DNA of 64,000 nucleotides from Amphiscolops sp. MND2022 (taxonomy: Eukaryota), in assembly GCA_964187785.1 (NCBI GenBank), contig OZ076409.1, positions 74,588,001-74,652,000 on the forward strand, in the 5' to 3' direction. Position 1 is the first letter of the stretch; every line of letters begins with the position of its first letter. Below are positions 37,301 through 58,779 of the stretch, piece after piece. The notes beneath the pieces were generated by a model. That model saw nothing but the letters and a program-made list of their open reading frames with translations, searched no databases and was not told where the DNA came from. The translations under genes were made by a program, and so were the position numbers.

Positions 37301-40300
37301 AGCCCTGCAACTGACGAGAAAAATGCCGTTTAGAACGTCTTTTTATCTTAAATTGACGTTGACTTATGATCTTTTGAGTATCGTATAACACGTGATCACA
37401 GTAATGAAAATCCTAATTTTCATTTATTTTCGATCCATACCGCATGAAAAGAACCTGGAAATGGTTCCAATAGGTCATTTGGTATGTCTGAAGCCTGTGT
37501 ACATTCCCGTAGTGTATACTGGAGGTGTTTGGGACTTATTAGAAACTGTGATATTATTTATACAAGTCTTTGTTTCTCTTAGAATCTTATGCCGTTGAGT
37601 ACATTCCATCTCCCTCTCAGGGGAGATGTGAATGTACGTTTGCCAAACGCCTTGTAAAGCTCACAATATTGATGGATTCGAAGAGTTGAACAAGTGTGAT
37701 TTGCGTTTGCCGGATCACTGTAGCAAAATTTCATTAATCTTTGAAGAGATTGAATGGTTTTTGTCTTTGGTGTTTCTTCTTGTATAGCCGACTTCCACAT
37801 CCAAATATCAACGCCCACCGTCCGTGGGCATGCCGAGGCATGCCCTTCGACGACGTATGCCAAATACCATATGCCACACAGTCTTTTCCCGCTAGGTGCC
37901 CGGATTTCTATTCATTAAAGTATGTTGCGCGTGTGGGTAGGGCCCCTGGCGCGCTCTTGTGTCCCTGTTCTCATAACTGCAATTTCCGGCAGCATTCTGA
38001 GCGATTTTCTAAACTATCCATACGATTCGGCTGAAATTTGGCATGTGAGTTCCTATGACAGTTCTAAGAAACATTTCCTACTGGCGTTTTGCCCGGAAAA
38101 TTTTTTTTGTTGACTTATAACGGTTTTTTTGGCCAAAAAATGCAATTTTTTCAAAAAATTTTTTTTTCGGAGCCCATATCTTTTTTCAGGGTGCCCGTAG
38201 CGGGACGCGTTAAACTGATTATAAACTCTACGGTTCATGGGCTTTACGGAGAACCTAGGCTCGTTTCGATCGGACAAATAGTCTTGGAGATATAACGGCA
38301 TTTTTTGGGAATTTTTTGGAAATTTTTCTAACGGTCCAGCTTATCTTTGCCATTTTTTCGAAAATGTACTCGCCTAAAGGCCTCCCCTGGCCGGTTTTAA
38401 TCCCAGCAAAACCATTTGGCCCTAAATACGGAGTTTCAGCGTTCCAGCATTCCCGGGCGAAAAGTTGTGGGACTTAGAAAAATTTCAAAATTTTTCAAAA
38501 ATTTTTTTTCCGTTTTCCGCCCTCCCCCCCGAGGGGAAAAGACCCCCCAACCAGTAATTTGAGTGAATTCATGTGGAAAGGCCATGTTTAGAGAAGAAAA
38601 ATGCCGTTTAGATCGTCTTTTTATTTTAACCTGTCGTTGACTTATGTTGTTTTGAAGGTGATGTTTGGATGTGTGAAGCATGTGAAAAGGTAATTTATTT
38701 TGTCTTTAGCTCTTCTAAAAGTCATTGAGATACACGGTGTGTGACTCAGAACGTGTTTAATTCTAATTTAGCAATGCATCAACACTTTTTTGTGTCTTTT
38801 GACTCTGTTTTAAAAAATTTTTTTGACTAAAATCAAAAATTATTTATAAATATTCACATTTTTTTTCTGATCTCATGACTCGAAACAGTTGAGTACATTC
38901 CATCTCCCTTCACGGGGGAGATGAGAATGTACTCTTTAGAGACCAGGTACTACAGTACTTACCTTCCCCGAGCAACGCCCCATAAAAATTGCGTTTTGAT
39001 CCAGATATTTTGACATAATTTTATCTTTGTAATTTGACTGGAAATGAAGAAAATGCCGCACGTGCTCTTTTATATCAAGTATCTTAACAACGCCATCTCT
39101 TTTACGTCAACGCCCCATCCTTGCATCAACGCCCACCGTCCGTGGGCATGCCGAGGCATGCCCTTCGACGACGTATACCAAGATATACTCCCGAGCGCGT
39201 TAGCCTAGGTGCCGGGATTTTCTATTCGACAAGTTTGCGCGCCTTGGGGAGGGTCCCTTTGCGCGCTTTAAGATCCAGGTGTTTCCAACTCCTAAACGGG
39301 CATGTGATTTCGACGATCTCCTAAACTAGCCATACGATTTGGCTGAAATTTGGCACACGTACCCCCCTCGGCACGGTGAAGATGATTCCCTACTGACGTT
39401 TTTTCCGCTAAACATTTTTTGTTGACCAAAATAACGGTTTTTGGGGTAAAATTTTCAACTTTTTTTAAATTTCATCTTATATCTCGCCACGGGTTTACGC
39501 TAGCGCTTCCAAATCTTGCTGACGAAACCTTGCAAACTGTCTCAGGAATGCGGTGTGAAATTTTCAGCTCAATCGGACTCAAACTCGGGGAGATATAGCG
39601 TTTTTCCGGAGCGGGGGGGTTTCATTTTTCTAACGGTCCAGCTTATCTTTGCCATTTTTTCGAAAATGCACTCGCCTAAAGGCCTCCCCTTGCCGGTTTT
39701 ATTCCCAGCAAAACCATTTGGCCCTAAATACGGAGTTTCAGCGTTCCAGCATTCCCGGGCGAAAAGTTGTGGGACTTAGAATTTTTCAAAAATTTTCAAA
39801 AAAATTTTTTTCCGTTATTTGGGCCCCCAAAGTGGGGGAAAAGACCCCCCAACCAGTAAAGCAAGGGAATGCATGTGCAAAGCCCTTGTTTAGAGGAGAA
39901 AAATGCCGTTTAGAACGTCTTTTTATCTTGGCTCAACGTTGACTTATGACGTTTTGAAGGTGGTGTTTGGAGGTGTAAAGCACGTGAATAGTAAACATTA
40001 TGGGTATTTATCTGATCTAAAAGCCATTGAGATGCAATATGGTTTGCTCAAAACGTAATTCATTGCAGTTTGGCAATCAATCAACACCCTTTGTTGTCGT
40101 TTGACATACTTTTTTGTTGTTATAATAAAAAAATTTGTGTATTTGTTCATTTTTTTCTCATCAAATAGCTTGAAACAGTTGAGTACATTCCATCCCCCCC
40201 TTCCGGGGGAGATGAGAATGTACTCGCAAAAAGCACCGGACTACGGCCCTTACCTTCCCGAGCTACGCAGTATAAGGATTACATATTGGTCCCGACATTT

Positions 40301-41479
40301 TCATAGAGTTAAATCTTGGTAATCTGTCTGGATATGCAGAAAAATCAGCACGTGCCTTTCAATACCAAGTTGCTTACAACGACAATTATTTTATATCAAC
40401 GCCCCCATATTTATCAACGCCCCCCGTCTGTGGGCATGCCGAGGCATGCCCTTCGACGACGTATACCAAGATATACATAAGCGCGGTAGCCGCTAGGTGC
40501 CGGGATTTCTATTCGTTCAAGTAAGTTGCGCGTGTGGGTAGGGCCCCTGGCGCGCTCTTGTGTTTCGGGTTCTCCTACTCCTAATTCACACCCCAGATTT
40601 CTCGGATCTCGTAAACTATCCATACGATTTGGCTAAAATTTGGCACACAGCTCCGTTGGAACATTGTAAGAACAAATCCCTACTGACGTTTTGCCCGCTA
40701 AACATTTTTTGTTGGTCAAAAATGCGATTTTCCGACAAAATTTTCGACTTTTTTTTCTTTTTCAACTCATATCTCGCCACCGGGTCACGCTAGCGCTTCG
40801 CGACCTATGATCCTTTTTTGTAGGGCGTTGTCTGTAGAACACGTATGCCAAATTTGGTGGCAATCGGACTTAAACTCAGCGAGTTAGAGCGATTTTTTAG
40901 GTGCATTTTTTGACAATTTTTGCATTTACCGATTTATCTCTGCCGTTTTTTGCCCAGATTTTTTTCTAGACACTCTCCTAAAGGCCTCCCCTGGCCGGTT
41001 TACATCCCAGAAAAACCATTTGGCCCTAAATACGAAGTTTCAGCGTTCTAGCATTCCCGGGCGAAAAGTTGTGGGACTTAGAATAAGTTTTTGGAAACGC
41101 AAAATGTGTAAAGTCAACTTCAGGCCTCTCAAAGTCAAGGAACTTCCACACAACTAGGATTGCAAGTGGATGCATGTGGAAAGTACTGGGATAGACGAGA
41201 AAAATGAGCTATAGAACAACTCTGTAGCTTAACTTGACGTTGACTTATGATGTTTTGAATGTGTGCTTGCTAAGGGGTCCGAAAGTCAAAAAATGAAAAT
41301 TGAGTTATTGCAAAGCAAAAACTCCTTTAAATAGGCTAATTAGTTATCAGTAACGTGAAACACGGTTGTACGGAGCAATTATTATTATAGGCGATACGGT
41401 TCGTTCAAAAAAGATTCCTAAAGTTCTGTTTTTTTTTCGTAGGTTTTTTTGTCTAGGATTTTTTTCTTTGGTTTGTTCC

Positions 41480-41520
41480 TTAGGTTATAGGTGTAGGTTA
41501 TAGGTTAGGCTTTTTTTAGG
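41480..41520 (+). repeat. Degenerate TAGG(TT) microsatellite in the 5' non-coding region of the large element
   Basis: TTAGGTTATAGGTGTAGGTTATAGGTTAGGC...TTAGG. Confidence 0.55.
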
Positions 41521-43046
41521 TCCTTTTTTGCTTTCCTTGTTCACAGCATAGTTTGTTTTTAGTGGCAGAAGAAGACGACGACGACCAAGCATACGACTTT
41601 TTCTTTTATTTTTTGGTTTTCCTTGGGGTTAATGGCTATCCCGAAACCAGTGGCTCCTGCTCGAGGGCTTCTCGGGTGCTGGTTTCGTGTATGGGGCTTT
41701 CCCCCCCAGTAGGTAACCTCTGCCCAAATTTTCAAACGTCCCTCGTAATTCGCATTTTGCCGGTTTTTTTTTTACGGGCGTTTCGTCGAAAAAGATAGAA
41801 TTTTTCTCGGAACCGGCAAAATCGGAAAATCAATCACCAAAAATAAAAGACGTCGAGAAATCAATCAGAGTTATCGGGCGTCCAGTTGCTCCAAAGAAGA
41901 ACTACAGATTAACCTTTCTTCAGTTTCAGGTGCCAGTCAATCAAGCTCAAGATGTCTTTTTTTGTAACTTATTAAATAGTCCATAAAATTATTGAAAATA
42001 GGAAAATTTGTAAAGGTTAGTTTTTTTATTGTTGAATCTAAACTTTAACTTTTGAACATATATGCCAGTGCTTTTATATGCATTAGGCTAAATAAATATA
42101 AAGTAAACCAAAATACAGTTTAACTGTTTTAATTGCCTTCAGTTTTAGTTTACAGATGAAGATACGCTGTAGCGCTCCGTGACGTTGTTTTCTGAATTGA
42201 ATTCGCGGAAACTATTTTATTTGCGCATCGTTCGTACGGCCGTTATTGAGCATAAAATACGCTCATTGAAAAAAATATGTGATCGTCGTCGTTTAATTTT
42301 TAGCAGTAATTGTCATATGTTCCCCCTTATGAAGTCTTAAATTTTATAAATTCTCTGCGGGATCTCTCTTTATATCACCTTAAATCGATCGAAAAAATTT
42401 TTGACAATCGTTTTTTCCCATGAAGCTTTTTGACTATGAAGATGTTCGATGAACCCGTTTTGTTTCTGAGCAAAGTGTTACGTCTTCGTCATCTTCTTCA
42501 AATTTGAGACCTGGTTTCTTCTTCAATTTAGACTAACAATATACTTTTTGGTTGATTTTTTGATCCCGCAGAGAAATCAGTTCCAATGTAAAGGCTATGT
42601 ATATGAATCACTTTGTACCTGATGCACTTGAGAATGAATTCCACGAATAAAAGACTTGAAACCTCTTGTACTGTATGTTTGAAGTATGTTTATTTTATAC
42701 TGAGAGTCAAGTAGAACATTACGTCTCCCGATCAAGTCATAGATTTTCTTCGCTCATTTTGTTCGTTAATTGCAATTTTCCGACTGTAACCACTTCACAC
42801 ATTTGATTTTGCAAAGAAGCATTGAACAACGCTGTTGTTTTAGAAAATGTTGATTCAAAACTGATTTTTTCACGTTTGAAAAATTATACGCTTTGCAAGT
42901 TCTCTGATTTCACCCATCGTCTAAAACTTGATTGATTCGAAATTGGTAATTGTTCCAGTAGCTTTTCAACTATTTATTCGATCTCATTAGCCAATTCGGT
43001 TGTTCCGTATCGAATCCTAGCCCCAATGAGTTTCTGAAATGTCCAA

Positions 43047-43066
43047 TTTTGTTTTATTTTTTTCAG
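43047..43066 (+). promoter_or_regulatory. Splice acceptor (cis- or trans-splice) immediately upstream of the RepHel ATG
   Basis: TTTTGTTTTATTTTTTTCAG followed by GGAT ATG. Confidence 0.6.
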
Positions 43067-43070
43067 GGAT

Positions 43071-43433
43071 ATGCCTCCAAGAAGAAATCGACGTGTTCGC
43101 AACACTTGCACCCGATGCCGCGTGTTTATCCCTCAATCTTCGATTTTGTGTTCCAGTTGTGCAGCTCCCTCCGTCGAAGTAACTCATCAAAACGAAAACA
43201 GCAGTGTTTCTCTTCCTAATGAAGAAACCCCCCGAAACACAGTTCACTCTCCTCCTTGTACCATATGTGGTTTACACGAACAGTCACAAGGTCTACTTTG
43301 TTGTTTCTGCTGTCCTCTTACTTTACCCGCTTGTACAGATGAAGAATGTCAGAAATGCAGAAGAATTACCTCCTACTCTTTGAATTCCATTTCCATGGCA
43401 GAAGTAAAGCAGACCGCATTTGGTTGCCGATGA
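43071..43433 (+). CDS. N-terminal Cys-rich (CxxC, zinc-finger-like) segment of RepHel, ended by a premature TGA
   Basis: CTRC, CSSC, CTIC, CCFC, CQKC motifs. ATG lies 5 nt after a strong splice acceptor (TTTTTTTCAG, AG at 43065-43066). Same frame as the downstream long ORF. Confidence 0.7.
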   Translation: MPPRRNRRVRNTCTRCRVFIPQSSILCSSCAAPSVEVTHQNENSSVSLPNEETPRNTVHSPPCTICGLHEQSQGLLCCFCCPLTLPACTDEECQKCRRITSYSLNSISMAEVKQTAFGCR

Positions 43434-43592
43434 CCGGGAGAAACATCTGATTTTGCAAGACTGTGCAACGAGTGTACTCATTACGCAACACATGGCTATC
43501 AATCCCCATGGCGAATAGTTTGGCCTTGTGTCGTATTAGATTTCCTCCGTGGTAAATATAATGGAGTTGCGGATGGAAAACCATTCCATAAA

Positions 43593-46500
43593 GTGTTGCC
43601 TACTTCTATATTGAAACAATATCAACATCTGTTGCAGTTTACCACCGATGACAAAACTACAGTTTTTGCGGACCTGACACACAAACTCGAGGAATTCAGA
43701 AATTTAAAAGAAGAACTCGAAATTGAAGGACTGCAGAAAGCTCATAACAAGTACTGTTTTCCAGAAGTTCGCTGTCCTTTTGGATGTACTGAATTTGTTG
43801 GGGACACCGGATTAATACCATTGCAGTTCTTTCTTCATATGTTAGACCAAAGCTTTGCATTTAACAAAACAAATTGGAAAAGGCGATTACATTGTGTTCG
43901 ACCTGATTGGTTGTCCCCATACAATCACAATGATGTCTTCAAAGTAAGACCACACATTGTTATCGACGAGAAACAAGGAATTTGTCTTGCCACCTGTAAA
44001 TTTCACAACGGGGGATCGCACCAGTTTTTCGTCCATCCTCCTACAAATCCCTCCGGCAGATTACCCTCGAAAAATGCTGATCGTCTCGGGCCAGCTACAG
44101 TTAGTTACAACTGTTACAAACCAAGCAAGCCGAATTTTTCCACTCACACGTTTTCAATGGGTGTGGCCAAGGGTAGTTTCTCCGGAATTAGTTCGACTAC
44201 AATTGCCTGTAAACGAAGGTGGGATATAGCATTTGGAGAAGACGATGTAGTAAGAGAGTCTCTTTGCTCAAACAAACGACAGGATATAAAACCGCTGTTA
44301 CAAAAACTTGTGCACAAAGGAGAGTTATCACAGAATCTCTTTGATAGCATTACATCAATTGAAGGTTTGCCTGACGATCAAACAATTCTGGAATGTTTGA
44401 AGACTGCTACATCCGTCCCTTTGGAGTTAGCTCTTGCATTAAAGAAAATTCAAGAAGAAGGATTAAATGTAAACTATTTTCCAGTTTTCTCCCATCCTTT
44501 TACAAATTACGGATGTGATCCTCCTGACACAGTTATAAACAAGTCAATGCCGAAACACTTATGGCTTTATACTGTAATGTTTGCTGTGAGTTGCAATTTC
44601 CATTTGTCTCTTTTGAAGTTCATTCCAACAGATACTTCCTTGAAAGATGTTTTCCCTCTAATGCTGATTAATGATGCTAGGCTTGTTGAAAAGAAGAAAC
44701 GAGAACTTGCAGAGTTTCTACAAAGTCGTTCGCAAGATCCCAATTATGACATGGTTGATAGTTTGGAACAATTGTTATCAACTATATCTTTCGTCAAACA
44801 CTTCACTGTAACTGACAGAGAAAGTGTTGAATCAAATTTGAAATCCCTGACCGACGAAAAAATTGTAACATTCATTACCAATGCAAGGAGAAGTGATGAT
44901 GGGTACTTGCCGGATAGAGTGGTAACTACGAATAGCTCAACAACATACCAGCTACGATCAATTGCTGTCACTGAGGGCGGTAACGTGAAAACCATCGTTA
45001 GACATGGAAATGAATACAATTGTTGGTGGATTTACTCTACAGCTCATGAGACTCCAACAAAAATGAAACTTGAAGATCTTGTGGAGATGAATAAATTTCA
45101 TTCAAACTGGTTGTCGTGCCATTACGAAGTCATCGGTTCAGTTGACATGCAGAGAGAAAAATACCAGTACTTGGAATATTTGGGAGGCCAGGGACGATTC
45201 ATTTGTGACGATCATCATGTCCCGCTTACTGTAGCTAGAAAAAACACCCCGACTCTTTGTTCATTTAGTCCCAGCTGTCAGCGAAAACCCGCTTGGAATT
45301 GCCCCTCGGAAAACTGCTTGTCGTCAGTCTGCCGCACGCATTTCAGACAATACCAACTTAGCGACGAACTGTTGTTTGTCAAATGCCCCACTTCAAATTA
45401 TGACGTTGTTCCTTCACAACCTGCTGAATCCTGTGATGATGATGATGTAGTTGTTTCTGATCCCGAATCAGATTACGATGAATTTTGTTTTACAAATTTC
45501 ACAACTGACACTGGTCATGTTGAAAATTTGACAAATTGTTTGGCTACTGATTCTGGTGACATGCCGTCAGTCGTTGACAGTATTGACACATCAATTCCTG
45601 CCCATATTCTGCTAAACACAGATTGTCATGTACTACAAAGGAAGAACTACAGAATTGACTGTTCTAAAACAAGTTCACGATTTTTACAGAACATTGTCGC
45701 AAGTTCACCTGGTAATTCCATCCCTCTCATTTACCCTGATGCAGCGCTCTTCCCTACTCAGTATTATCATGAACAGACAGACAACACTATTACTGGCGCT
45801 GTTCCGGCTCCTCTGTTTTGTGATAAACAGAGCAAACACTTTCTCTTTGCGAGCATTGAGGATCATAAGCGATCAGCTGTTCTGAACCCAAATCTTTTGC
45901 AGTCAACCGATGTTAGAAGTATTCAGACATCCTTCGACACCGTCCTGAATAAGAGTCTCACTTTCTCCGATACACGTTTGGTTCTCAATAGAGGATTCCA
46001 AGAAGTGACTGTGAAGACTTCCAAATCAATTACACCAAGCAATCCAAAAGTTCAATTTGATCAAGCAGATTCTAGAGTACGCGTGAATGAATTGGCCGCA
46101 TTGTTATCTAAAGAACCTGCTACATTTTTTCTGACACTCACCTGCAATCAGAAAAATCACTTTGGGGTAGCACCAATTTTCGAAGCTATCGACAATCGAT
46201 TCAACAGAAATGATAAAGAAGAGTACGAGAGAGCAATTCAAGCTGAGATGGTCGTACTAACAAGAGCTTGGTATAGATCAGCTGAAGCTTTAATGGAATG
46301 GATCGAAAAATCTCCCGACCAACCACTTGGAACTGTCACCAAAATTTGGTATCGCTATGAGTTCCAGTCTACCAAAGGGAACTTACCGCACATTCATTGC
46401 GTCATATGGACAAAAGAAAGCAAAGCAGACTTACAACACAAGGTTTCATGCTCCGGATCATCAGCTTTATTCGAACTGAAAAAAATAGCAGCTGAAACAA

Positions 46501-47120
46501 ATGTTATTAATTGTGATCAAGTTTTCGATTTGTGGACTCAACTGATGACAATTCAAACACACTCCTGTGAAAAGGCAAACTATCGCTGTCACAAAATTGT
46601 CAAAGACGATGGGTCAACAATATGTAGAGTTCCCCGTTACCCGCATTCAAACCAATATTCCTGGAGAAAAATCCCATCGAGCCATTCCGAAGAAGCATTG
46701 CAAGTTCTTCATTACCTTGACTTGGCAACACCCTCGAAGTTTCAAGACGATACCTTTGATGTTTCGGATAGTCTTCAAGGAGGCAAATTCGAATACCCTG
46801 CCTCAAGTGACGAGCACCTTTCCCCTTTTAACCCACTTGTTTTCGTCATTACGATGTCTTCGCAAAACCTTCAATTGTGTGACGAGTACCTGTCTGCCAG
46901 ATATATTGCAAAATATGCAGCAGGAATTGAAGAACGAGCTGATGCACGTGTTGATCCCGTGTCCTTTAATGAAGTTAGACTTCACACTAAAGGAATCAAT
47001 AATTCAAAAATTTCCAGTTGCCGTATCAAAGAAAAAAGTACAGAGAGAAAAACAATCGTTCAGATAATTCCTCTCGTTGAAACAATTTTGGTGGTTACTA
47101 AACTTCAAATATGTTCATAG
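43593..47120 (+). CDS. Helitron-type Rep (HUH-Y2 rolling-circle endonuclease) part of RepHel, with an upstream Cys/His-rich region
   Basis: Motif 1 FFLTLTCN (46125-46148); motif 2 RYEFQSTKGNLPHIHCVIW (46353-46409, compare Helitron E.Q.RG.PH.H...W); motif 3 YIAKY (46902-46916, two catalytic Tyr). Confidence 0.9.
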   Translation: MLPTSILKQYQHLLQFTTDDKTTVFADLTHKLEEFRNLKEELEIEGLQKAHNKYCFPEVRCPFGCTEFVGDTGLIPLQFFLHMLDQSFAFNKTNWKRRLHCVRPDWLSPYNHNDVFKVRPHIVIDEKQGICLATCKFHNGGSHQFFVHPPTNPSGRLPSKNADRLGPATVSYNCYKPSKPNFSTHTFSMGVAKGSFSGISSTTIACKRRWDIAFGEDDVVRESLCSNKRQDIKPLLQKLVHKGELSQNLFDSITSIEGLPDDQTILECLKTATSVPLELALALKKIQEEGLNVNYFPVFSHPFTNYGCDPPDTVINKSMPKHLWLYTVMFAVSCNFHLSLLKFIPTDTSLKDVFPLMLINDARLVEKKKRELAEFLQSRSQDPNYDMVDSLEQLLSTISFVKHFTVTDRESVESNLKSLTDEKIVTFITNARRSDDGYLPDRVVTTNSSTTYQLRSIAVTEGGNVKTIVRHGNEYNCWWIYSTAHETPTKMKLEDLVEMNKFHSNWLSCHYEVIGSVDMQREKYQYLEYLGGQGRFICDDHHVPLTVARKNTPTLCSFSPSCQRKPAWNCPSENCLSSVCRTHFRQYQLSDELLFVKCPTSNYDVVPSQPAESCDDDDVVVSDPESDYDEFCFTNFTTDTGHVENLTNCLATDSGDMPSVVDSIDTSIPAHILLNTDCHVLQRKNYRIDCSKTSSRFLQNIVASSPGNSIPLIYPDAALFPTQYYHEQTDNTITGAVPAPLFCDKQSKHFLFASIEDHKRSAVLNPNLLQSTDVRSIQTSFDTVLNKSLTFSDTRLVLNRGFQEVTVKTSKSITPSNPKVQFDQADSRVRVNELAALLSKEPATFFLTLTCNQKNHFGVAPIFEAIDNRFNRNDKEEYERAIQAEMVVLTRAWYRSAEALMEWIEKSPDQPLGTVTKIWYRYEFQSTKGNLPHIHCVIWTKESKADLQHKVSCSGSSALFELKKIAAETNVINCDQVFDLWTQLMTIQTHSCEKANYRCHKIVKDDGSTICRVPRYPHSNQYSWRKIPSSHSEEALQVLHYLDLATPSKFQDDTFDVSDSLQGGKFEYPASSDEHLSPFNPLVFVITMSSQNLQLCDEYLSARYIAKYAAGIEERADARVDPVSFNEVRLHTKGINNSKISSCRIKEKSTERKTIVQIIPLVETILVVTKLQICS

Positions 47121-50055
47121 TTCTGTTTCGTTTCTTCATTTATCGACTCTTGAAAAGTCAGAACGACCGTCTTTCATCAAACTCAGAAAAAATACAAACC
47201 CAACCCAGCCGTTACCTTTACATGTTACAAAAAGTTTCACTTTACCACTGTCGCGTCAATTCACCCAATCACAGTTGTTGGTTTTAAAAGATTCTATGAC
47301 AAGTGAGCATTCTAACTGCAAAATGACAGTTTTTAGCGGTAGGCCACCAGCGCTTTTGTGTGTTGATAACCCTCAACTGTATTTCACTTGGTTCAACAGA
47401 GTTAATATTCGGCATCCCCAGGATACATTGAATCATGATGTTAACAATTCAAAATGGATAGACCTTTTCGGACGTGCTGTACACTTGAGACGTTGCTATC
47501 TTGATGACTTTTCCACTTATGTCAACAATCTGAGAAGAGAGGGACATATCAACTTGTACCGATTCGATGAAGATACATCGATTTTGTTTCTACAAAACGA
47601 CTGTTTGGGATTGAAAACAATAGACGATTCTCCAGTTCAAGTTGTGACATCAAACATTGTGCCAAATAATCGTCGAAAATTTTTGGTGCACTTTGTTCTA
47701 TCTAACGGGAAGTTTGAGACAGAACCAGATCTATTCAATCATCCTAGCATGCTGGAGGTTTTCATCAACTGCAAGTTACTGCCATCAAAAAGTTCTTATA
47801 CACAACAAGATGCCTGTGATTTAGTAAAATTTTACGTTTTGTCGGAACTCAAATACCTTCCTGGGGCAAGCAGATCGTTCGATCGTCATTTGTTATGTTG
47901 TTACGACTTGATGACCAATCTTGTTCTTTATAACCAGATTCATTCCGAAGCTTTGCCCTCAATTCTTCATTCAGAGATAAGCGAAAACGCTGAAATTGAT
48001 TACATTTTACACATTTACGAAAAACGCGAGCGAAGTGTTCAAGGTTGCCTCTTAAATCCAGCTTTGATGCCATTACAACCACACAAAGATTCTTTCGTCG
48101 CAGCCACCCGCAGAAACCCGTTTGTGTACAATTTTCTGTTTCCTCGAGCTCCCGGACAGTCGGACGAATCAAACACTTTTCAACAACGTGTGTTCAACGA
48201 GTGCATTCAGAAATTGACTAACTTCATTGAAACAAAAGACGGTTTCATAAAACATCAGTTGTTTTTGGGGCGTCCGGGAAGCGGGAAAACACTCATCTGC
48301 ACAATGATATATCTGGAAGCTGTAGCAAAAGGCCTCAATTGTGCAGTAACTTGTCTAAGTGGAGAGCGAGCCCAACAACTCGGTGGCGAACATGTCCACA
48401 AACTATTCAAGTTCAGAGTAAACAAAATACAGAATCCCGAAGTAATGGCTTCCCAAAGTTTGAAAAGTCTTCTCAAGGATGTCACACGGTTCACCGAGCT
48501 GGAACGCCTTGATGTACTATTCATTGATGAAGTGGGCCAGCTGAATTCTGAATTGATGATAGCTATGGAAATTGTTCTACAAACTGTGAGAGACAACAAA
48601 TTGCCAATGGGAGGGATCTTTACCATCCTCACAGGAGACCCGAAGCAGTTGCGCCCTCCACAAGGATCATTGACATGGTTGTCACCGAAAATGCTGACAA
48701 ATTTCGATTTCCATTACTTTAAACACTACGTAAGAGCAAAGCCTGGATTGTTGCGAGAGATACTGACTAAAATGGACGAACTTGAAATCAGCCCAATCGA
48801 AGCATCAAATATTGCAAAAGAAATTGTAGCCAATAGCAATATCAAATCAACTTGGGACAGTTTTGGTGACAACTTTGACATGCGTGTATTCAGCACACGA
48901 GCCGCAGAGAAACAAGCTGTTACACATCATTTTGAAACAATTCTGGCTGACCACAGTTGTGAAAAGGTCGTGTTATCCGCAATTGATGAAGAGAGTTCCA
49001 CCGGTTCGTCGATTTGGCGTCCGGCGGGTGACAGCGAACAAACATTCATCGATTCCACATCCATCACTCCTCGACAACTGCTCTTGTACAAAAAAGCGCT
49101 TCTAAGATTTACAGCTAACCTCCCCAACATTCAGGCTCGACAAGGACAGTTGTGCCTAATTTTGGAATTACCAACCGAAACAACGTCTTCCCTGGAAGTT
49201 TGGATCGCACCACCAGGTTGTCGCACCGTAACAAATTTCGATGAAAATAACCTATCTACATCAGGTTGGCGCAAAGTCTCTATTTCAAAAGTGTTTACAC
49301 CTATAATGACTAACAACAACAAATTCCTAAGGAGATACTCTTTTCCTCTGAAGAATTATGTGGCATCCACTATTCACAAATGCATTGGTGACACGTTCCC
49401 AAAGATTGTTACCAAAGTTTCACTTACGGACAAACATTACAAAATTTGGGAAAAAGAGCAACTTCTTGTGTTGTTGAGTAGAGTCAGTAAGCTCGACGAC
49501 ATAACCTTCGTAGGTGAAGAACACGAAATAGAATTAACTTTAACAGCTGCCATTCAGCAAAAGTCCTGTTGGGGAACTTTCATCAATAACCTTCTAGAAA
49601 AATTGGCCTCTACTCCCTCTGACCTGACGCCGCCAACACTCAACCTCCTTTCTTCAAATGTTGTACCTTGGAACATTGTCTTACCCGAAGACAATGTAGG
49701 CTTTGTGTATCTTCTGATAAGCACGAAGATTTGGAATGTTTATTTCATTGGAGAGGCTCTGGAAATTCGGCGAGAATTGAAACTTATCAACTCTGGAAAT
49801 GGCGCATCCGAAACACGCCCAATCGAACGAAGGCCATGGGCAATCTTAGCATTTGCAACAGGTTTCAACACCGAAGATTCTTCCAGCAACAACACGCAAA
49901 GAAAATCGCTTGTATCGAAGATGAGAACGCAATTTACTTCCCTTGGATTAAACTTCACCACCGTGGATTTGTTTGAAACGTTCAAAGAATCAACGAGAAC
50001 ATATGCTGACGAACGTGATCTAAATTTGAGAGTTATCCAGTGTGGCAGTGTTTAA
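47077..50055 (+). CDS. PIF1-like SF1B helicase part of RepHel with a C-terminal GIY-YIG-like domain
   Basis: Walker A GRPGSGKT (48268-48291), Walker B LFIDEVGQL, PMGGIFTILTGDPKQLRP (motif III), FPLKNYVASTIHKCIGDT (motif V), VLLSRV (motif VI). From ~49699, GFVYLL..YFIGE..INSG..T....RPW resembles SLX1/UPF0213-type GIY-YIG. Confidence 0.9.
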   Translation: MKQFWWLLNFKYVHSSVSFLHLSTLEKSERPSFIKLRKNTNPTQPLPLHVTKSFTLPLSRQFTQSQLLVLKDSMTSEHSNCKMTVFSGRPPALLCVDNPQLYFTWFNRVNIRHPQDTLNHDVNNSKWIDLFGRAVHLRRCYLDDFSTYVNNLRREGHINLYRFDEDTSILFLQNDCLGLKTIDDSPVQVVTSNIVPNNRRKFLVHFVLSNGKFETEPDLFNHPSMLEVFINCKLLPSKSSYTQQDACDLVKFYVLSELKYLPGASRSFDRHLLCCYDLMTNLVLYNQIHSEALPSILHSEISENAEIDYILHIYEKRERSVQGCLLNPALMPLQPHKDSFVAATRRNPFVYNFLFPRAPGQSDESNTFQQRVFNECIQKLTNFIETKDGFIKHQLFLGRPGSGKTLICTMIYLEAVAKGLNCAVTCLSGERAQQLGGEHVHKLFKFRVNKIQNPEVMASQSLKSLLKDVTRFTELERLDVLFIDEVGQLNSELMIAMEIVLQTVRDNKLPMGGIFTILTGDPKQLRPPQGSLTWLSPKMLTNFDFHYFKHYVRAKPGLLREILTKMDELEISPIEASNIAKEIVANSNIKSTWDSFGDNFDMRVFSTRAAEKQAVTHHFETILADHSCEKVVLSAIDEESSTGSSIWRPAGDSEQTFIDSTSITPRQLLLYKKALLRFTANLPNIQARQGQLCLILELPTETTSSLEVWIAPPGCRTVTNFDENNLSTSGWRKVSISKVFTPIMTNNNKFLRRYSFPLKNYVASTIHKCIGDTFPKIVTKVSLTDKHYKIWEKEQLLVLLSRVSKLDDITFVGEEHEIELTLTAAIQQKSCWGTFINNLLEKLASTPSDLTPPTLNLLSSNVVPWNIVLPEDNVGFVYLLISTKIWNVYFIGEALEIRRELKLINSGNGASETRPIERRPWAILAFATGFNTEDSSSNNTQRKSLVSKMRTQFTSLGLNFTTVDLFETFKESTRTYADERDLNLRVIQCGSV

Positions 50056-50124
50056 TTCATTTGGGTTTACAAATATTACACTGTAGAAGTCTCTGAGACT
50101 GGACGATAGATGAAGCATGTGAGG

Positions 50125-50156
50125 TTGCCCCGGCCACGCAGTGAGCCGAGGGCAAG
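50125..50156 (+). other. GC-rich stem-loop ~70 nt after the RepHel stop
   Basis: TTGCCC-CGGC-CAC-GCA-GTG-A-GCCG-A-GGGCAA in an otherwise AT-rich intergenic stretch. Confidence 0.6.
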
Positions 50157-50602
50157 CTTTATTCAAAACTATAGATGAACATCTTTTTTGTTGAAATGTT
50201 CTTTGATTATATTTTGCCTTTGCTCATTTCTTCAACGTTCCTTTGTAAATATATATTGATTAAACTGTCAACCATTGATAATAATACCAGTTGACACTGA
50301 AATTGACACCAGTCATGAAAAAATAATAATTGTCTGACTGGAACAAAAAAAAGACAAAAAAACAAGATGGCAAGATTGATGAAACAGTTCAATTCTTCAA
50401 CTTCGATAATCTTTTCCTTAACATACCTTTAACATCACGTGGAGGGAAATAGAAAAACATTTCTACAGTTAATTAGTTCGAAAAAAAATTAGACAGTATT
50501 TAGACGCAGTACATCGAAAGAAATGAAAATCGGTCGCGAAACATAACGTTATTGTGTTTTTAGATAGCTTTGTCTTCAATCCAGACTGAAACAAGATTCA
50601 AA

Positions 50603-51980
50603 ATGCCCATCATTAATAAAGATTTGTCGGCAGATGAGGCAGCCACCAGAACAATCAGTAAATTAACAACATGTGAACTCGATGAAGTGATGGAATCTAA
50701 TGCAACGGATCGGAAGTACATGATTTGTACATTGCTTTACGCCAAAAAATGTGTGAAATCAGTATCGTATTTTAAACTAACGAATGGACAAAAGCAAAAA
50801 CAGGAGGCTACATTCAACCGTTTTGTCCTTCTGGGAGTGATCGGAAAAGAGAAAGTAATGGCAATATTTACCTACACCCAACTAGAAAGCGCGGAGTTGT
50901 TGCGTTACTGTTCTGCATTACAACCGGGAAATGCGTGCGCCTTAATACGCCCTAAATTCGATAACAAGTATATGGGATCATCATCCACTACCCCAATCAT
51001 ACTAACTTCTGAGCCACTTGTGCCTCTGAACATCAAGAATTACCCTGATGTCAGCTGTCCAAGAATTGTATCATCACCGGATTTTCAACATTTCTACATC
51101 AAAACGAAAGATTTGAAGCTCGATAATATAGATGCCATTGGAAACGTGTGCAATGGGACCTTCTGCGATGGTCAACCGAAGGGCGACTGTCCTTGTTTAG
51201 AGGTCGACAACCGGAAAAGCAGCTGGATCATTACTGCGGATGTGAAATGCAGTGGGTTGTATCACTCATCAAAAATACGATCAAAACGATTGATAACGGT
51301 ATTCGCTCCCAAATGTAAGTCGGCGGACCCTAACAAAAGAGAATTTGATGTCCTTGATTTGGGCGATTGTATTGAAAACTGTGTTGAAGCAGTAAATGCC
51401 AAGAATGGATGGGAAATTTTCGGTTGGGTGAAACCAAACGAATCTGCTCTAGAGTTTACAAACTATGAATGCGACCTACACATTATACATCTTCAACCTA
51501 TCGAAATTACAGATGTAGAGTCAGGTAAACCTACACTTCAAATATTTAATTTTCCAGTTTTTACTTTCTTTTTTCGCTAAAGTTCTAAATAATTTTCGAC
51601 CAAAATATGTCTAGCAGAATCAAAATATACATTTTAACAGAATATAAAACACAATTTTTAATGTTATTAACAATTGTTTTCGCAAAAGACATGAACAATA
51701 ATTTCACCTTGAACTGTTATTTTACAACTTGAGACTAAAACTTAGAGTCTTTATTTTTTCCCATCGTAATTTTTAAGATGATCGATAAGTGACAAATGAT
51801 AAATATACTTTAGATGCATACAAAGCCTTGCAGTATAAGTTGCCCGGAACGTCTGCCCCACAAGTTGAAATGCCCATCATGGCAACTACATCAGGGATAG
51901 CTTCGGTTCCAGCGACAGCTCCAGCAACACCTCCAGCAAACGCTTCCCCAGATGTACAAGCAGCATCGGTTGAACAATGA
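50603..51980 (+). CDS. Second element-borne gene of unknown function; probably two exons (50603-51524 and 51814-51980); Cys cluster; possibly an OB-fold/ssDNA-binding accessory protein
   Basis: Long ORF 50570-51580 with first ATG at 50603. Donor CAG|GTAAAC at 51524/51525, AT-rich intron, acceptor TACTTTAG at 51813 giving in-frame ...TDVES-D-AYKALQYKLP... Motif CNGTFCDGQPKGDCPC. AATAAA at 52214. Function is inference only. Confidence 0.72.
51525..51813 (+). other. Putative GT-AG intron in the second gene
   Basis: GTAAAC donor, AT-rich body with stops, TTTAG acceptor that restores the frame. An alternative AG at 51788-51789 is also in frame. Confidence 0.6.
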
Positions 51981-54900
51981 AAATCACATTATCAAATACG
52001 AAAAATACAGAAGTCAAGAGAAGTGACAATAAGAAAAAAAACATTGATAGACTTAAAAATCTCATAACTTTGTGATTAAATAATGTTATAATGTGATCAT
52101 AAAAAGATTGCAGAAAAAAATTATCTTGGAACCGGTAAAACATTATAAATATCGTACTGTTATGTTCCTTTAGTTCATATTCTTGAAATATTGTTAATTT
52201 CTTATTTCAAAGAAATAAAAATTCACTTTTTCGTTTATGAATAAAGTTTATCGTTCCCACAAGAAACTTGAATAGAGTGTTTATAGAATAAACACGTATG
52301 TTCATAGACTATTCAATATTTTAAATAGAAAAATCTGAACTAGTCAAACTACTAATCTTTTTGACTGAACTTTGCCTTCACTCTGGTATGACATTTGCTA
52401 AACGTTTGGTCCTTACAACATACACATGACTAACGTCAACGCCACATACTGTTACCAACGCCCACCGTCCGTAGGCATGCCGAGGCATGCCTTTCGACGA
52501 CGTATGTCAAATACCTTAAAACCGACGCGCACTCTCCCGCTAGGTGCCGGGATTTCTATTCGATAAAGTATGTGGCGCGCCTTGGGTAGGGTCCCTTGCG
52601 CGCTCTTGGGTATGGTGTTCACCAGCTAGGAAACAGGGGTCGATTTTTCGGGATCTCCTAAACTAGCCACACGATTTGGCTGAAATTTGGCACACGTACT
52701 CCCCTCGGCACGGTGAAGATGATTTCCTACTGACGTTTTTCCCGCAAAATTTTTTTTGTTGTCCAAAATAACGGTTTTTGGGGTAAAATTTTGAATTTTT
52801 TTTTTAAATTTTATCTTATATCTCGCCACCGGTTTACGCTAGCGCTTCAAAACCCTGCTAAAGAAAGCTTGCAAACTGTCTCAGGAATGCTGTGTGAAAA
52901 TTTCAGCTCAATCGGACTTAAACTCAGGGAGATATAGCGTTTTTCCGGAGCGGGGGGGTTTCATTTTTCTAACGGTCCAGCTTATCTTTGCCATTTTTTC
53001 AAAAATGCACTCGCCTAAAGGCCTCCCCTGGCCGGTTTTATTCCCAGCAAAACCATTTGGCCCTAAATACGGAGTTTCAGCGTTCCAGCATTCCCGGGCG
53101 AAAAGTTGTGGGACTTAGAATATTTCAAAAATTTTCAAAAAATTTTTTTTTCCGTTATTTGGGCCCCCAAAGTGGGGGAAAAGACCCCCCAACCAGTAAG
53201 GCAAGTGAATGCATGTGCAAAGCCCTTGTTTAGAGGAGAAAAATGCCGTTTAGAACGTCTTTTTATCTTGGCTCAACGTTGACTTATGACGTTTTGAAGG
53301 TGATGTTTGGAGGTGTAAAGCACGTGAATAGTAAACGTTATGAGTATATATCTGATCTGAAAGCCATTGAGATGCAATATGGTTTGCTCAAAACGTAATT
53401 CATGGCAGTTTGGCAATCAATCAACACCCTTTGTTGTCGTTTGACATACTTTTTTGTTGTTATAATAAAAAATTTTGTGTATTTATTCATTTTTTTCTCA
53501 TCAAATAACTTGAAACAGTTGAGTACATTCCATCCCCCCTTCCGGGGGAGATGAGAATGTACTCGCAAAAAGCACCGAACTACGGCCCTTACCTTCCCGA
53601 GCTACGCAGTATAAGGATTACATATTGGTTCCGACATTTTCATAGAGTTAAATCTTGGTAATCTGTCTGGATATGCAGAAAAACCAGCACGTGCTTTTTT
53701 ATACCAAGTTGCTTACAACGACAATTATTTTATATCAACGCCCCCATATTTATCAACGCCCCCCGTCCGTGGGCATGCCGAGGCATGCCCTTCGACGACG
53801 TATACCAAAATATGTTCGAGCGCGTTAGCCTAGGTGGAGGGGATTATATCACAGCTATAATGGTTTTTTCCGGAGTTTGTGGCTTTGGAAAAAACTAAAA
53901 GCGAAAATTTTGGGACCAGGGGTTAGTACCGAGTTCCGCGCGAAACCTACTTAGGAAAATGGCCAATCCTGAATTCGATCTCAAAACTGAGCCATACGAT
54001 TTGCCTGAAATTTTGCATGCGGCTTCCTCTAGCGATTCTAAGAACTTTTCCCTACTACCATTTTGCCCGGGAATTTTTTTATGTTGACTTATTCACATTT
54101 TAGGTGCCAAAAATTGCGTTTTTTCAAAAAATTTTTTTTCAAGAGCTCATATCTTGCTTCCAGGTGCTCGTAGCGGGTCGCATGTGGACGTTGATATTGC
54201 TCGGCACTTCGTAAGGAGTCCGTATACAAATTTTCGTACAGATCGGATGAAAATTGACTGAGTAATAGCCGCATATTGGACGAATTTTGTCGAAAATTTC
54301 GGTACACCTAGTCTATCTCTGCCGTTTTTTGCCCAGATTTTTCTTGAGACACTCTCCTAAAGACCTCCCCTGGCCGGTTTACCTCCCAGCAAAACCATTT
54401 GGCCCTATATACGAAGTTGCAGCGTTCTAGCATTCCCGGGCGAAAAGTTATGAGACTTAGAAAAAAAATTTTGGAAACGCAAAATGTGTAAAGTCAATTT
54501 CAGGCCTCCCAAAGTCAAGAAACTTCCACACAACTAGGATTGCAAGTGAATGCATGTGGAAAGTGCTCGAATAGGCGAGAAAAATGAGCTATTATACAAC
54601 TCTGTAGCTTAACCTGACGTTGACTTATGACATTTTTAGTGTGAGCTTGCTATGCGAGAAAAATTTTCAAAAATTGAAAATCGAAGCTAAGTCTTATCCA
54701 AAAACGTTCAGTCAACCTCAGAGCTTTTCAATTCCAGTTGTCTAATGCAGCAACACTATTTAGGGTAGTTTGAAACCATTTTTATAAGTTTTGACTCCGT
54801 CTTATCCATTCGAAACAGTTGAGTACATTCCATCTCCCCTTCGTGGGAGATGGCAATGTACTCGCAAAAAGTCAATTACTATTGCCCTTTTTAAACCTGT

Positions 54901-55136
54901 AGTAGCCCTAGAAAAGCAGTAGCGTGAGCTCCAGGCTGTTTGCAGTAACTACTAAAATTGTGACCAGAATTTGCATTCTTTTTGATTTGACATATTCTGA
55001 ACGTTTGGTCCTTACAACATTCACATGACTAACGTCAACGCCACATACTGTCACCAACGCCCACCGTCCGTAGGCATGCCGAGGCATGCCTTTCGACGAC
55101 GTATGCCAGATAACTCTAGCCACGCTGTCATACTCG

Positions 55137-57508
55137 GTGGTCGGGGTTATTTCCCAGCCAATTTTGCCGCGCGGGGAGGGACCCGTTCAGCGGCCCAGGT
55201 CATTATTTTTTTACATTAAAAAAAACGATACCCCGGAAAGCGATTTCGAAACCCACCCGTAGGATCCCTCTGAATTTTTGCATACACCTCCGTATAACAG
55301 TTCTAAGAAAAAGTCAGCAAGGGCGTTTTCAGTTCTAAACGGGGAATGTTGACCAAAAAGCGCAATTTATGTCCAAAAAAATGCAATTTTTCGACTTTTT
55401 TATTTTTGACGGCCAACAGCTCTTTTCCAGATGCCCGCCCAAGTCATAAACCGGAGAAAAGTTTTGTTGGGCACTTCGTGAAGAATCCTTAGGGTGATTT
55501 TCGTTTCAATCCTATTTCCTGACGTTGACTTATGGTTGGGTGAAAAAACGCAACATTTGTTACAAAAAGTGCTTTTGGTACTCAAGGGCCCATAACTCGT
55601 GACATAATCAATTGAGCAAGTTCGTGTATAATTACGATTTTCTTGCCTATTGATAGGAGAACAAACAAGCAAGAACAAAATTTTCTGTGGGAAGACGTCA
55701 AAAAAAGATATCAAAGGTTTTATACTCAATAAAATGGTGTTTTTCGATTATCGTGGAAAAAATGTAAAAGGGTGGCATTTTTCGGCTGTTCAAGGTAGCG
55801 GGTATTTCATTGCAGTTAATAACTCACCTCTAGTAGTCATTTACTTGGATGATTTTCAATGTTGATAAATTGCATGATAAACTTCATTTTTTGCGTCACC
55901 AATATTGACACCCACGATTTCAGTCAATTTTTTCGCGTTCACGTTTTTGAGTGGATATAACTTTTTTCCAGTGCGTTTTACGGTCATCATCCAGGAGCAC
56001 AAAATTGTTGGCCGTCTTAAGCAGAAAATATATGGTAAGTTTAGAGTCATTTGAAACGTTTTTGAAATGTCCAGAGATGCACACATTTACAGTTTTTTTG
56101 CCCACAAAACACTATTTTACGAAACCCAACACTTTTTGCCAAAAAAGTCAAACTTTGTCCACACAACTTAGATTGCAAGTGAATGCATGCGGAGAGTACT
56201 TGAAATGATGGGAAAAATGAGCTATAGAACGCTCATTTACGACAACCTGACGTGGACTTAGGATAATTTGAAAAAGTACGAAAAAAAAGAACAACGGTTC
56301 CAAAACAATCAGTTTGTAGTAAATGGCCAATAACTCCATACACAACCCTCCGCGCAAGCTAGTGTCCAAGTACGTTTTTGTTACCCGTGAACAGTGCAAC
56401 AAATAAGTAAAAGTAAAACTTTATGTAGAGAATCGTCGGAGAAAGAAATAACGGGATTTTTTATCACATTTAAGAGACAAAATTGAAAAATTAGTCTATT
56501 CCTGGCATTTTACCTAAACTTTTTCGACAGTACACATACAGGAGGTAAAATTCGTCCAATATCATGCCTAACAAAACTATTTGATCCATTGGCCGCAATT
56601 TGAGCGTTCCAATTTTCCCCAGTCATAAATTATGGGACTTCGAAAATTTTCAAAAGTTCCATTTTTCAACAAAATTTCAAATTCAGGCCTCCCAAAGGTA
56701 AGAAAGTTCCACACAACTAGGATTGCAAGTGGTTGCATGTGGAAAGTGCTCGAACCGACAAGAAAAATGGGCTTTAGAACGTCTCTCTATCGTAACCTGA
56801 CGTTGACTTATGATGTTTTGAATGTGATACTGCTACGTGCTCGAGAAGTGTAAGTGGAACATATGTCTCGTTGAATACTCATCGGAATACATTCAATGAA
56901 CCCAATCACCCTAAATTGCAGTTTCCTAGTGCAACAACGTCTGTCAAGGACCTTTTTTGATAAGAGTCGAAATTATTATTAAATTCAGTTAGCAAGAAAC
57001 ACTTGAGTACATTCTCATCTCTCCCCATCGGGGGAGATGAGAATGTACTTGCTAAAACGGCTTCTTTGTTTTCATGCGATGGATTCTGTGCCTTGCCACA
57101 CATATAACTTTGTTTTGTGTGACCTTGCGTATATACTTTGACTTGTCATAATAAATTTCTTCTCGTAAATTTACGTAAATCAACAATGCATCTACAATGC
57201 ACCTTCAACGTCAAAGCCAAATAAATATAGCTGGCCACCGTCCGTAGGCAGAGCAAGGCATGCTTTTTGACGACGTATGCCGAAACACAAACGCGAACAA
57301 AACTGCTGAAAATCAGAAACAGTGACCAACAATTTTGACTGTTTGACATATGGTAGGTTTTTATATGGAACTTACTGATATTTCACAACATTTCAGCTGA
57401 CGCCCACCTACCACTATCAACGCGCACCGTCAGTGGGCATGCCGAGGCATGCCCTTCGACGACGTATGGCTAATACCTTCAGCGACGCCCCCGCGCTCCC
57501 CCGTCTAG
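55137..57508 (+). mobile_element. Unit 35: long composite unit (2372 bp) with a unique internal segment and a duplicated 3' end
   Basis: Unique ~55520-56140. The CACACAACT..GATTGCAAGTG block occurs twice (~56160, ~56710). Degenerate palindrome at ~57243-57279. The 3' half is related to unit 2. Confidence 0.72.
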
Positions 57509-58779
57509 GTGGCTGGGAATTTTTTTTCTGCTCAATTCTTTGCCAACTGGGGGAGGGGCCCCTGGTGGCTGTTACCCAAATTACATACCTACCCAAATCG
57601 TCCGCTCCGGATACGATCTCGAAAACCACCCAGTAACTTTTTCTGAAACTTTGCATACAGGCCTAGAATCAAATCCTAAGAACTATTTCCTACTGGCGTT
57701 TTTCCGAATTTTTTCAAAAAGTTGGTCAAAAATGCAACAAAAGTTGCCAATGGACATAAAAAACGCAACTTTTCGACTTTGAGGGCCCATAACTTTTTCC
57801 GGAGTGCCCGGAGCGGTTCGCACGTGGACCACAATATTGCTCAGCATTGTCGAAGCAGTGCGTGGACAAATTTTGGTTCGAATCGGATGAAAATTGACTG
57901 AGAAATAAACGCAAATTTTCGTGCATTTGTTGCAAATACCAGTCTATCTCTGCCATTTTCGCCCAAAATTTTTCCCAGAGCCTTTATAGGGGGCAACCCC
58001 TGCCCAAATTTCTGCCGAGCAAACCCATTTGGCCCTAAATACGGAGTTTCAGCGTTCCAGCATTCTCGGGCAAAAAGTTGTGGGACTTGAAAATTTTTCA
58101 AAAAAACGCAAAAATTGTGAAAAGTAACTTCTGGCCTCCCAAAGTCAAGAAACTTTCACACAACTAGTATTGCAAGTGAATGCATGTGGAAAGCACTCGG
58201 ATAGACGAGAAAAATGAGCTAAAGAACGACTCTGTAGCTTAATCGGACGTTGACTTATGACATTTTGAGTGTGAGCATCCTATAGGATTTTAATGTCAAA
58301 AATGAGATTTTGTAAGTCATGTCTCATCAAAACCTCATCGGAATACGTTCAATCATCCTTATAGCTGTTCAATCACCGTGGCTTAGTAGAGCAACGCCAT
58401 TGAATGTCTTTGGACCCATTTTGAAAATTTTCGTTACCGTCTTATTCGTCCGATATCACGAAACAGTTGAGTACATTCCATCTCCCCCGTTGGGGGAGAT
58501 GAGAATGTTCTCGCCATAGATCTGATACAATGGCCCCAATTGGTTTTTATTTGACCTTTCTCACGATATTGCACACGGATAGCTGTGTTTGGTAAAAGTT
58601 TTCCTTTGCACCATGTCTCCAGTAGCTAAACCACTTCTTTAGCTTACTACATCTACTCAAACATCACTAACGTCAACGCCACATACTCGCTTCAGCGCCC
58701 ACCGTCCGTGGGCATGCCGAGGCATGCCCTTCGACGACGTATGCCAAATAGCGCCACAGGGCGCAAACATTCCCGCTAG

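Follow-up and report, generated by a model that had tools for sequence, protein, structure and literature searches.

What kind of mobile element carries a Rep-helicase (RepHel) gene that sits in a row of short, abutting units, and how did that row arise? The question is posed by 64,000 nucleotides of the forward strand of Amphiscolops sp. MND2022 (GenBank assembly GCA_964187785.1, contig OZ076409.1, positions 74,588,001 to 74,652,000), hereafter the window, in which an earlier reading of the letters, the original prediction, had singled out the RepHel gene. From the directly observed domain order, fold matches, termini, two hairpins, junction and shuffled array we conclude, with a probability of roughly 0.6, that this gene belongs to a broken copy of an autonomous-type member of a deep lineage of Helitrons, whose copies likely go into targets similar to their own joined ends and so stack into mixed arrays.

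Joined units, termini and hairpins

The heptamer CTAGGTG occurs 38 times on the + strand of the window and twice on the - strand, the expectation being 2.9 per strand; one variant junction brings the total to 39. These junctions delimit 38 complete units, all on the same strand: 35 of 1,071-1,409 bp, two of 2.2-2.4 kb, and the RepHel element of 12,047 bp. Every unit starts with GTG(G/C) and 37 of the 38 end in CTAG. The junctions abut with no added bases, and the units possess hairpins near their ends and no target-site duplication. Terminal inverted repeats were not found in any of the 38, the longest inverted match (5-8 nt) being equal to that of internal controls. Over its first 795 bp the RepHel element matches two short units at 93-95% identity, and over its last 170 bp or so a third at 87%; because the 5' 795 bp and the 3' end are held in common, the short units are considered non-autonomous relatives of the RepHel element.

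Of 39 unit starts, 37 contain the core of the 5' hairpin, GGG(G/T)AGGG, which is otherwise absent from the + strand of the window. The arms of this hairpin co-vary, since cognate arms fold at -11.7 kcal/mol vs -7.4 kcal/mol for swapped ones, and 0 of 20,000 permutations were as stable (15 distinct hairpins). An ungapped consensus fold displays little covariation because bulges shift the register. The 3' hairpin is found in 35 of the 38 units, with a closing pair that switches from G-C to A-T.

About 19 unit types follow one another in shuffled order, with same-type neighbours occurring three times vs 1.7 in shuffled arrays (p 0.24). Ten pairs of units are at least 94% identical (one is 100% identical over 1,282 bp), and in none of the ten are both neighbours in common. 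Scattered near-identical units and chance-level adjacency fit insertion one unit at a time. The coordinates of the array, the element and its parts are given in Table 1.

Table 1. Features of the array, the RepHel element and its genes (positions within the window)
Feature	Position	Strand	Basis or remark
Head-to-tail array	889..64000	+	38 complete units, flanked by partial ones at the two window ends
Complete autonomous-type element, 12,047 bp, GTG start, CTAG end	40497..52543	+	junction mapping
5' subterminal hairpin, GGG(G/T)AGGG core at 40536	40523..40559	+	fold z -2.2
RepHel gene	43071..50055	+	three pieces in window copy: 43071-43433, 43434-47087, 47077-50055
Cluster 1, CxxC...CxxC, predicted zinc site, spans TGA	43347..43475	+	Cys/His in 87-91% of 45 relatives
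Premature in-frame TGA	43431..43433	+	intact siblings read through
Cluster 2, CxxxC...CxxH, predicted zinc site	43773..44006	+	Cys/His in 78-100% of 45 relatives
USP fold without conserved catalytic Cys or His	44493..45143	+	predicted model, Foldseek, VIA, alignment
Cluster 3, eight-ligand, predicted two-zinc finger	45204..45341	+	Cys/His in 98-100% at all eight positions, 45 relatives
HUH Y2 Rep domain	45732..46916	+	Pfam PF14214 Helitron_like_N, E 3e-8
Frameshift in T run, between Rep and helicase	47086..47089	+	real lesion or assembly error
PIF1-like helicase	48268..49482	+	Pfam PF05970, E 5e-9
SLX1-type GIY-YIG domain	49699..50052	+	profile, predicted fold; four of five active-site signature residues replaced
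Second gene, 325 amino acids, may have a further exon	50603..51580	+	conserved beside RepHel in relatives
3' subterminal hairpin, GGCATGCC-GA-GGCATGCC core, about 40 bp from end	52466..52502	+	fold z -2.7
3' terminus and junction CTAG/GTG (CTAG, then GTG of next unit)	52540..52546	+	junction mapping

The RepHel protein and its neighbour

The fusion of a Y2 HUH Rep with a PIF1-like helicase, by which Helitrons are recognized at the level of the order, is present in RepHel. Rep motif 1 lies at 46125, the HUH motif at 46386-46400 and YIAKY at 46902, while the helicase carries Walker A at 48268, TIHKCIG at 49369 and WEKEQLLVLLSR at 49447, the family signature at its motif VI being W-x3-Q-x5-SR. 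Outside this core CPFGC is located at 43773, CKFH at 43995, CDDH at 45204, GFVYLL at 49699 and RPW at 49831. The motifs quoted in the original prediction were all recovered in place; as a correction to it, RepHel is not a single open reading frame in the window copy, which is broken by a TGA and a frameshift (Table 1). An intact sibling of 2,328 amino acids is 94% identical, and 11 of the 13 members of the 90% identity cluster are full length (2,321-2,338 amino acids), which by sequence marks the subfamily as young and largely intact.

Taken alone, the C-terminal tail of the window copy scores weakly (Pfam PF01541, E 0.04). A profile of 15 tails retrieved five Slx1-family sequences (E 1e-14 to 4e-11), which ranked above GIY-YIG proteins of bacteria, and the predicted structure of the tail (pLDDT 89.7) has SLX1-family chains as its top 10 Foldseek matches, with VIA Z scores of 10.0-10.6 (root-mean-square deviation 2.6 over 103-108 residues) and a next row at Z 6.8. 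The RPW...GF...E signature of the SLX1-lineage fold is present in the tail, and the Glu conserved among the tails of the profile aligns with E79 of Slx1, the E79Q mutant of which is reported to be inactive (PMC6902002). The original prediction had proposed a GIY-YIG fold, to be given up should a fold comparison of the tail find no match; the comparison found one.

The same source had noted that the catalytic Arg, His and Glu look replaced by eye and had taken a degenerate tail as a mark of the lineage. The former is true of the window subfamily: the window copy has Y-F-E-I-V vs the canonical Y-Y-R-H-E, all 12 siblings have this or a close variant, and none of the 12 keeps the second Tyr, Arg, His or Glu. 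Neither extends to the lineage as a whole. A helicase-plus-tail profile matched 791 representatives at E 1e-30 or better, and among the best 150 of these 148 possess the tail, the other two stopping at or before it. All five residues are kept in 126 of the 142 that are fully covered, an upper estimate, since six of the seven tails in the search profile were intact and the intact share is inflated. In a FastTree tree built from 123 helicase cores of the family, 88 of them labelled as intact, 24 as eroded and 11 without a label, the tail changes state 10 times, with at least six changes forced by well-supported branches. The tail nuclease is best read from these sequences as ancestral to the clade and repeatedly lost; by the same comparisons the GIY-YIG tail is standard architecture of the lineage, with active-site loss confined to some subfamilies, that of the window included. 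Among siblings the tails are 93-100% identical, similar to the helicase. Between subfamilies they diverge faster than the helicases, and the eroded ones slightly faster again (49-53% identity to the window copy vs 56-59% to the intact P0006), a pattern such as is expected under relaxed selection.

About 1,020 residues stand ahead of Rep motif 1. They had been described as Cys/His-rich, which holds for three conserved clusters (Table 1) and not uniformly: the Cys plus His content is 7.8% vs 5.0% in the remainder of the protein, and about 215 residues form a USP-like fold. In a predicted model of 662 residues (pLDDT 81.9), residues 354-570 match USP deubiquitinase folds (56 Foldseek matches at E 0.001 or better; VIA Z 12.8, root-mean-square deviation 3.4 over 190 residues; 36 chains at Z 8 or more). 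With respect to the catalytic triad Cys-His-Asp, inspection by eye of 23 of 46 rows found neither the Cys-box nor the His-box position occupied by a conserved Cys or His; the domain, which had escaped the original prediction, is read as a predicted pseudo-deubiquitinase that may have a ubiquitin- or chromatin-binding role. Residues 1-340 of the model, a barely tested region, gave no fold match, and the notion that the N-terminus is a remote DUF6570 found no support, there being no profile-profile match beyond the Rep-proximal 187 columns. Extra domains occur in some family members: a Ulp1 following the tail, TPR repeats, or an OTU domain at the N-terminus (P0029, P0031, P0090, P0095).

Homologs of the second gene lie beside RepHel in relatives (tblastn, six loci at E ≤ 2e-5). 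Its product has no Pfam match and no PDB sequence match; by analogy with its Atlas neighbours, POT1, CTC1 and MEIOB (a weak lead), it is probably an OB-fold single-stranded DNA-binding protein. The core of the unit 5' hairpins (40536-40543 in the RepHel element) resembles a telomeric G-rich repeat, and together with the POT1 and CTC1 neighbours this may be a coincidence; no telomeric arrays are among the TRF rows for the window. A splice-acceptor-like sequence stands ahead of the RepHel ATG (43050-43070), a donor-like site lies near the end of the second gene (51526), and a short coding-like Ala/Pro-rich stretch follows at 51780-51980; from such sequences introns in the genes of this element appear possible.

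Relatives and placement among Helitrons

The references for HLE1, one of the two main groups of Helitron-like elements (HLE), were seven Rep cores from eukaryote-like contigs in bacterial bins, assigned by motif, and those for HLE2 were proteins with DUF6570; 16 redundant or badly cut rows were removed from the Rep set. Canonical Helitron-type Rep was noted in 15 contigs of bacterial genome bins (L026-L040), which are probably eukaryotic contamination. In the Rep tree (20 family, 7 HLE1, 10 HLE2) the family stands on one side of a branch supported at 100/100; it is likewise separate under a mixture model (11 family, 6 HLE1, 6 HLE2; 100/99) and in the helicase tree (17 family, 2 HLE1, 8 HLE2; 100/100). 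RepHel thus falls outside the HLE1 clade (6-7 Rep and 2 helicase references) and outside the HLE2 that were sampled (6-10, mostly arthropod; subgroups a, c and d and proto-Helentron not knowingly included), the reference sets of the trees consisting of HLE1 and HLE2 sequences. Our verdict on these trees, in which reference sampling is thin, is that the family appears to be a deep Helitron lineage outside the sampled HLE1 and HLE2, in agreement with the distinct lineage originally proposed.

As with HLE1 elements such as Helraiser, the family combines a Y2 HUH Rep and a PIF1 helicase with a 3' hairpin, a CTRR end and a downstream gene of single-stranded DNA-binding type, and end-joined circles and tandem arrays are reported for HLE1. 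It differs in its 5' end, which is GTG (38/38 units) rather than TC; in its flanks, which are CTAG and GTG where HLE1 inserts between A and T; and in its conserved 5' hairpin, its C-terminal SLX1 domain and its N-terminus of about 1,000 amino acids including the USP fold. The family Rep profile matches Helraiser at E 0.17 only. With HLE2 it shares a nuclease that is fused C-terminally to the helicase, APE in the case of Helentron, and ubiquitin/SUMO protease domains (UCH and OTU in HLE2; OTU or Ulp1 in some family members), and with proto-Helentron, as described, a 5' stem-loop and a 3' CTAG. Unlike HLE2, its nuclease is GIY-YIG instead of APE, and DUF6570 (0/18 family proteins), terminal inverted repeats and a TT target are lacking.

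The closest published systems resemble it in part. HelenSM92, a moss HLE2 family, is a Helitron-like element with a captured GIY-YIG domain, inverted repeats and TT sites (PMC11417382); compared by its description only, it acquired the domain in one family, whereas here the domain is fused in frame clade-wide. A Paramecium HLE clade outside HLE1 and HLE2 has long open reading frames, a sequence-specific target and strict orientation like ours, but its target is telomeric repeats (PMC13085455); the main text and seven supplements of that paper make no mention of GIY, and the end of one Paramecium open reading frame, judged by eye, shows a motif VI of the usual kind plus some 90 more residues that lack a GIY-YIG motif. 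The structure-selective endonucleases SLX1 and At-HIGLE provide the best profile and fold match for the tail, which differs in being fused to a transposase and, in the window copy, in being without four of the five signature residues. Replitrons and IS91 likewise belong to the HUH transposons and have terminal hairpins and target sites used in a specific orientation, but they are described as having no helicase and another Rep (PMC10288648).

Twenty-five metagenome loci were examined, most of them too short for element ends. L001 (32% protein identity, intact tail) ends in CTAG/GTG, and the next unit has the same 5' hairpin. L020 (about 25% identity) begins with GGTG and has a 5' hairpin at position 115 (z -4.1). 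L019 and L021 have common sequence up to CTAG, followed by TTG and GTG, respectively, and L007 and L008 have common sequence from a G/GTAG boundary (after the first G), preceded by CTG or CTA. Five boundaries in relatives thus fit a CTRG/KT target in their sequence. On the question whether homologs elsewhere also sit in junction-joined arrays, raised in the original prediction, L001 stands before another unit and L019 adjoins an apparent host gene.

One family member is a Styela clava protein and the others derive from ENA, JGI, NCBI and Logan records; viral contigs yielded no family relative and no match to two Rep motif patterns. In distant relatives a further gene, absent from the window element, lies downstream of RepHel (E about 1e-11; L011 10567-14034 on the - strand, L019 5704-7005 on the - strand, L021, L024 and L025). 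Subfamilies 35-65% identical to one another have longest contigs of the same size, 1,297,008 (P0007, P0009, P0016, P0085) and 335,743 (P0083, P0251), and a longest contig of 503,278 is common to P0005 and fragments of the window RepHel copy. Because these sizes are identical, many autonomous subfamilies, intact and eroded, are suggested to co-occur on the same contigs.

Proposed insertion at junctions and its alternatives

Helraiser is reported to form circles with precise end-to-end junctions which its transposase can cleave again (PMC5876387). By analogy, the Rep of the window family would recognize the 5' hairpin and nick ahead of GTG; the helicase would displace one strand, with the second protein as its likely coat; cleavage after CTAG would be signalled by the 3' hairpin; and the ends would be joined into a circle with a CTAG/GTG junction. 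We propose in addition that the Rep handles a chromosomal CTRG/KTG site like the junction of the circle. Insertion would then leave two new junctions, and consequently the array would grow one unit at a time without duplication, the short units being mobilised in trans. Single-strand insertion would leave a branched or flap intermediate, which the tail may cut in most of the lineage. The tail of the window subfamily would not cut; it likely persists as a remnant or serves as a binding module, and intact subfamilies or host enzymes would cut instead. Because junction joining also occurs with an intact tail, target choice lies more likely in the Rep and hairpins.

It is unlikely that the array represents rolling-circle read-through concatemers, altered later by recombination or gene conversion among tandem copies and involving no preference for junctions, although plants and bats are reported to have tandem arrays and head-to-tail junctions (PMC5876387) and the units of our array are mosaic. 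Read-through would copy a unit beside itself or in whole blocks, whereas near-identical units are scattered and never have both neighbours in common, same-type adjacency is at the level of chance, and relatives display junction-like flanks at single boundaries. A smaller chance still is given to the idea, put forward in the original prediction, that the element is targeted by its dead GIY-YIG tail, through binding of the tail to hairpin or branched DNA at resident junctions. The eroded tail does keep its fold, its length and a helicase-like identity among siblings; loss has occurred 6-10 times, with 18 of the 24 eroded tails in the 32-row clade that holds the window element; and Slx1 is described as having DNA-binding sites separate from its active site (PMC6902002). 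Against this, L001 ends at the same CTAG/GTG before another unit although its tail keeps the residues, so that junction joining is independent of a dead tail; the faster divergence of tails, of eroded ones more so, is what relaxed selection would give; and the losses that cluster are affected by phylogenetic non-independence and by sampling bias. We consider it improbable that the dead tail does the targeting.

There is, likewise, only a low probability that the family is an unrecognized branch of a published group, be it HLE2 with UCH, the moss GIY-YIG HLE2, an unclassified HELIANO cluster or a Repbase family. HELIANO, here compared by description, includes HelenSM92 with its GIY-YIG, reports UCH for subgroups c and d of HLE2, and leaves at least four clusters from 19 genomes unclassified. 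The missing DUF6570 and terminal inverted repeats and the lack of a TT or AT target argue otherwise, as do the inverted repeats and TT sites with which HelenSM92 is described. In the literature searched no description of a clade with such architecture and termini was found; Repbase and the unclassified HELIANO clusters could hold members.

Several points weigh against insertion by a separate lineage into its own junctions. The units are mosaic, with 19 types by their 5' ends and 23 by their 3' ends, and recombination therefore also shapes the array. Flank evidence in relatives amounts to five boundaries, defined after inspection; that of L019 begins with TTG and adjoins an apparent host gene, and elements of its type are thus not confined to arrays. 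The references are thin (for Rep, 7 cores from HLE1 and 10 from HLE2, the latter mostly of arthropods; for the helicase, just 2 from HLE1), and the helicase tree and the mixture-model Rep tree gave long-branch warnings. To these are added the inflated share of intact tails and a role for the nuclease that is argued purely by analogy.

The array alone is not new, because plants and bats are reported to contain Helitron arrays that are likewise mixed and head-to-tail (PMC5876387). The one precedent found for GIY-YIG in a Helitron is the moss HLE2 family, whose described ends are different, and a target-specific third clade is already reported in Paramecium. To a classification of two clades and one Paramecium clade the family would add a diverse clade that has its own termini, a 5' hairpin that is conserved, and a nuclease that became fused to RepHel independently, the second such case. 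Target choice and second-strand completion in Helitrons are open questions which a defined junction target makes testable, aided by natural nuclease-intact and nuclease-dead versions on the same chassis, and insertion instead of duplication offers a route to mixed arrays of kilobase units. We put forward more tentatively, at somewhat below even odds, that this is an undescribed, widespread major clade for which the element's own end-to-end junction is the integration site, such that many subfamilies build shared, self-extending cassette arrays, and in which a chromatin-reading pseudo-deubiquitinase is joined within the transposase to a HUH relaxase-helicase and an SLX1-type resolvase. If true, this would be sequence-directed insertion of kilobases of DNA without a double-strand break by a single-chain transposase.

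Lastly, some details of the array deserve mention. An array of RNA genes was ruled out by 0 Rfam and 0 tRNA matches. The units at 12272-13342, 7179-8444 and 61441-62731 keep GTG, the 5' hairpin and CTAG and are without the common 3' hairpin; since the first of these has no BLAST match to other units, unrelated families appear to use the same junction. Inside each of the two double-length units (889-3074 and 55137-57508) lies a copy of the 3' hairpin that has decayed, near 2808 and near 57250, respectively, and these units are perhaps fused or read-through products. An internal hairpin (GAGTACATT...AATGTACTC) is found in 19 of the 38 units, for example at 40181-40225, and other internal conserved words occur in 22-27 of the 38.

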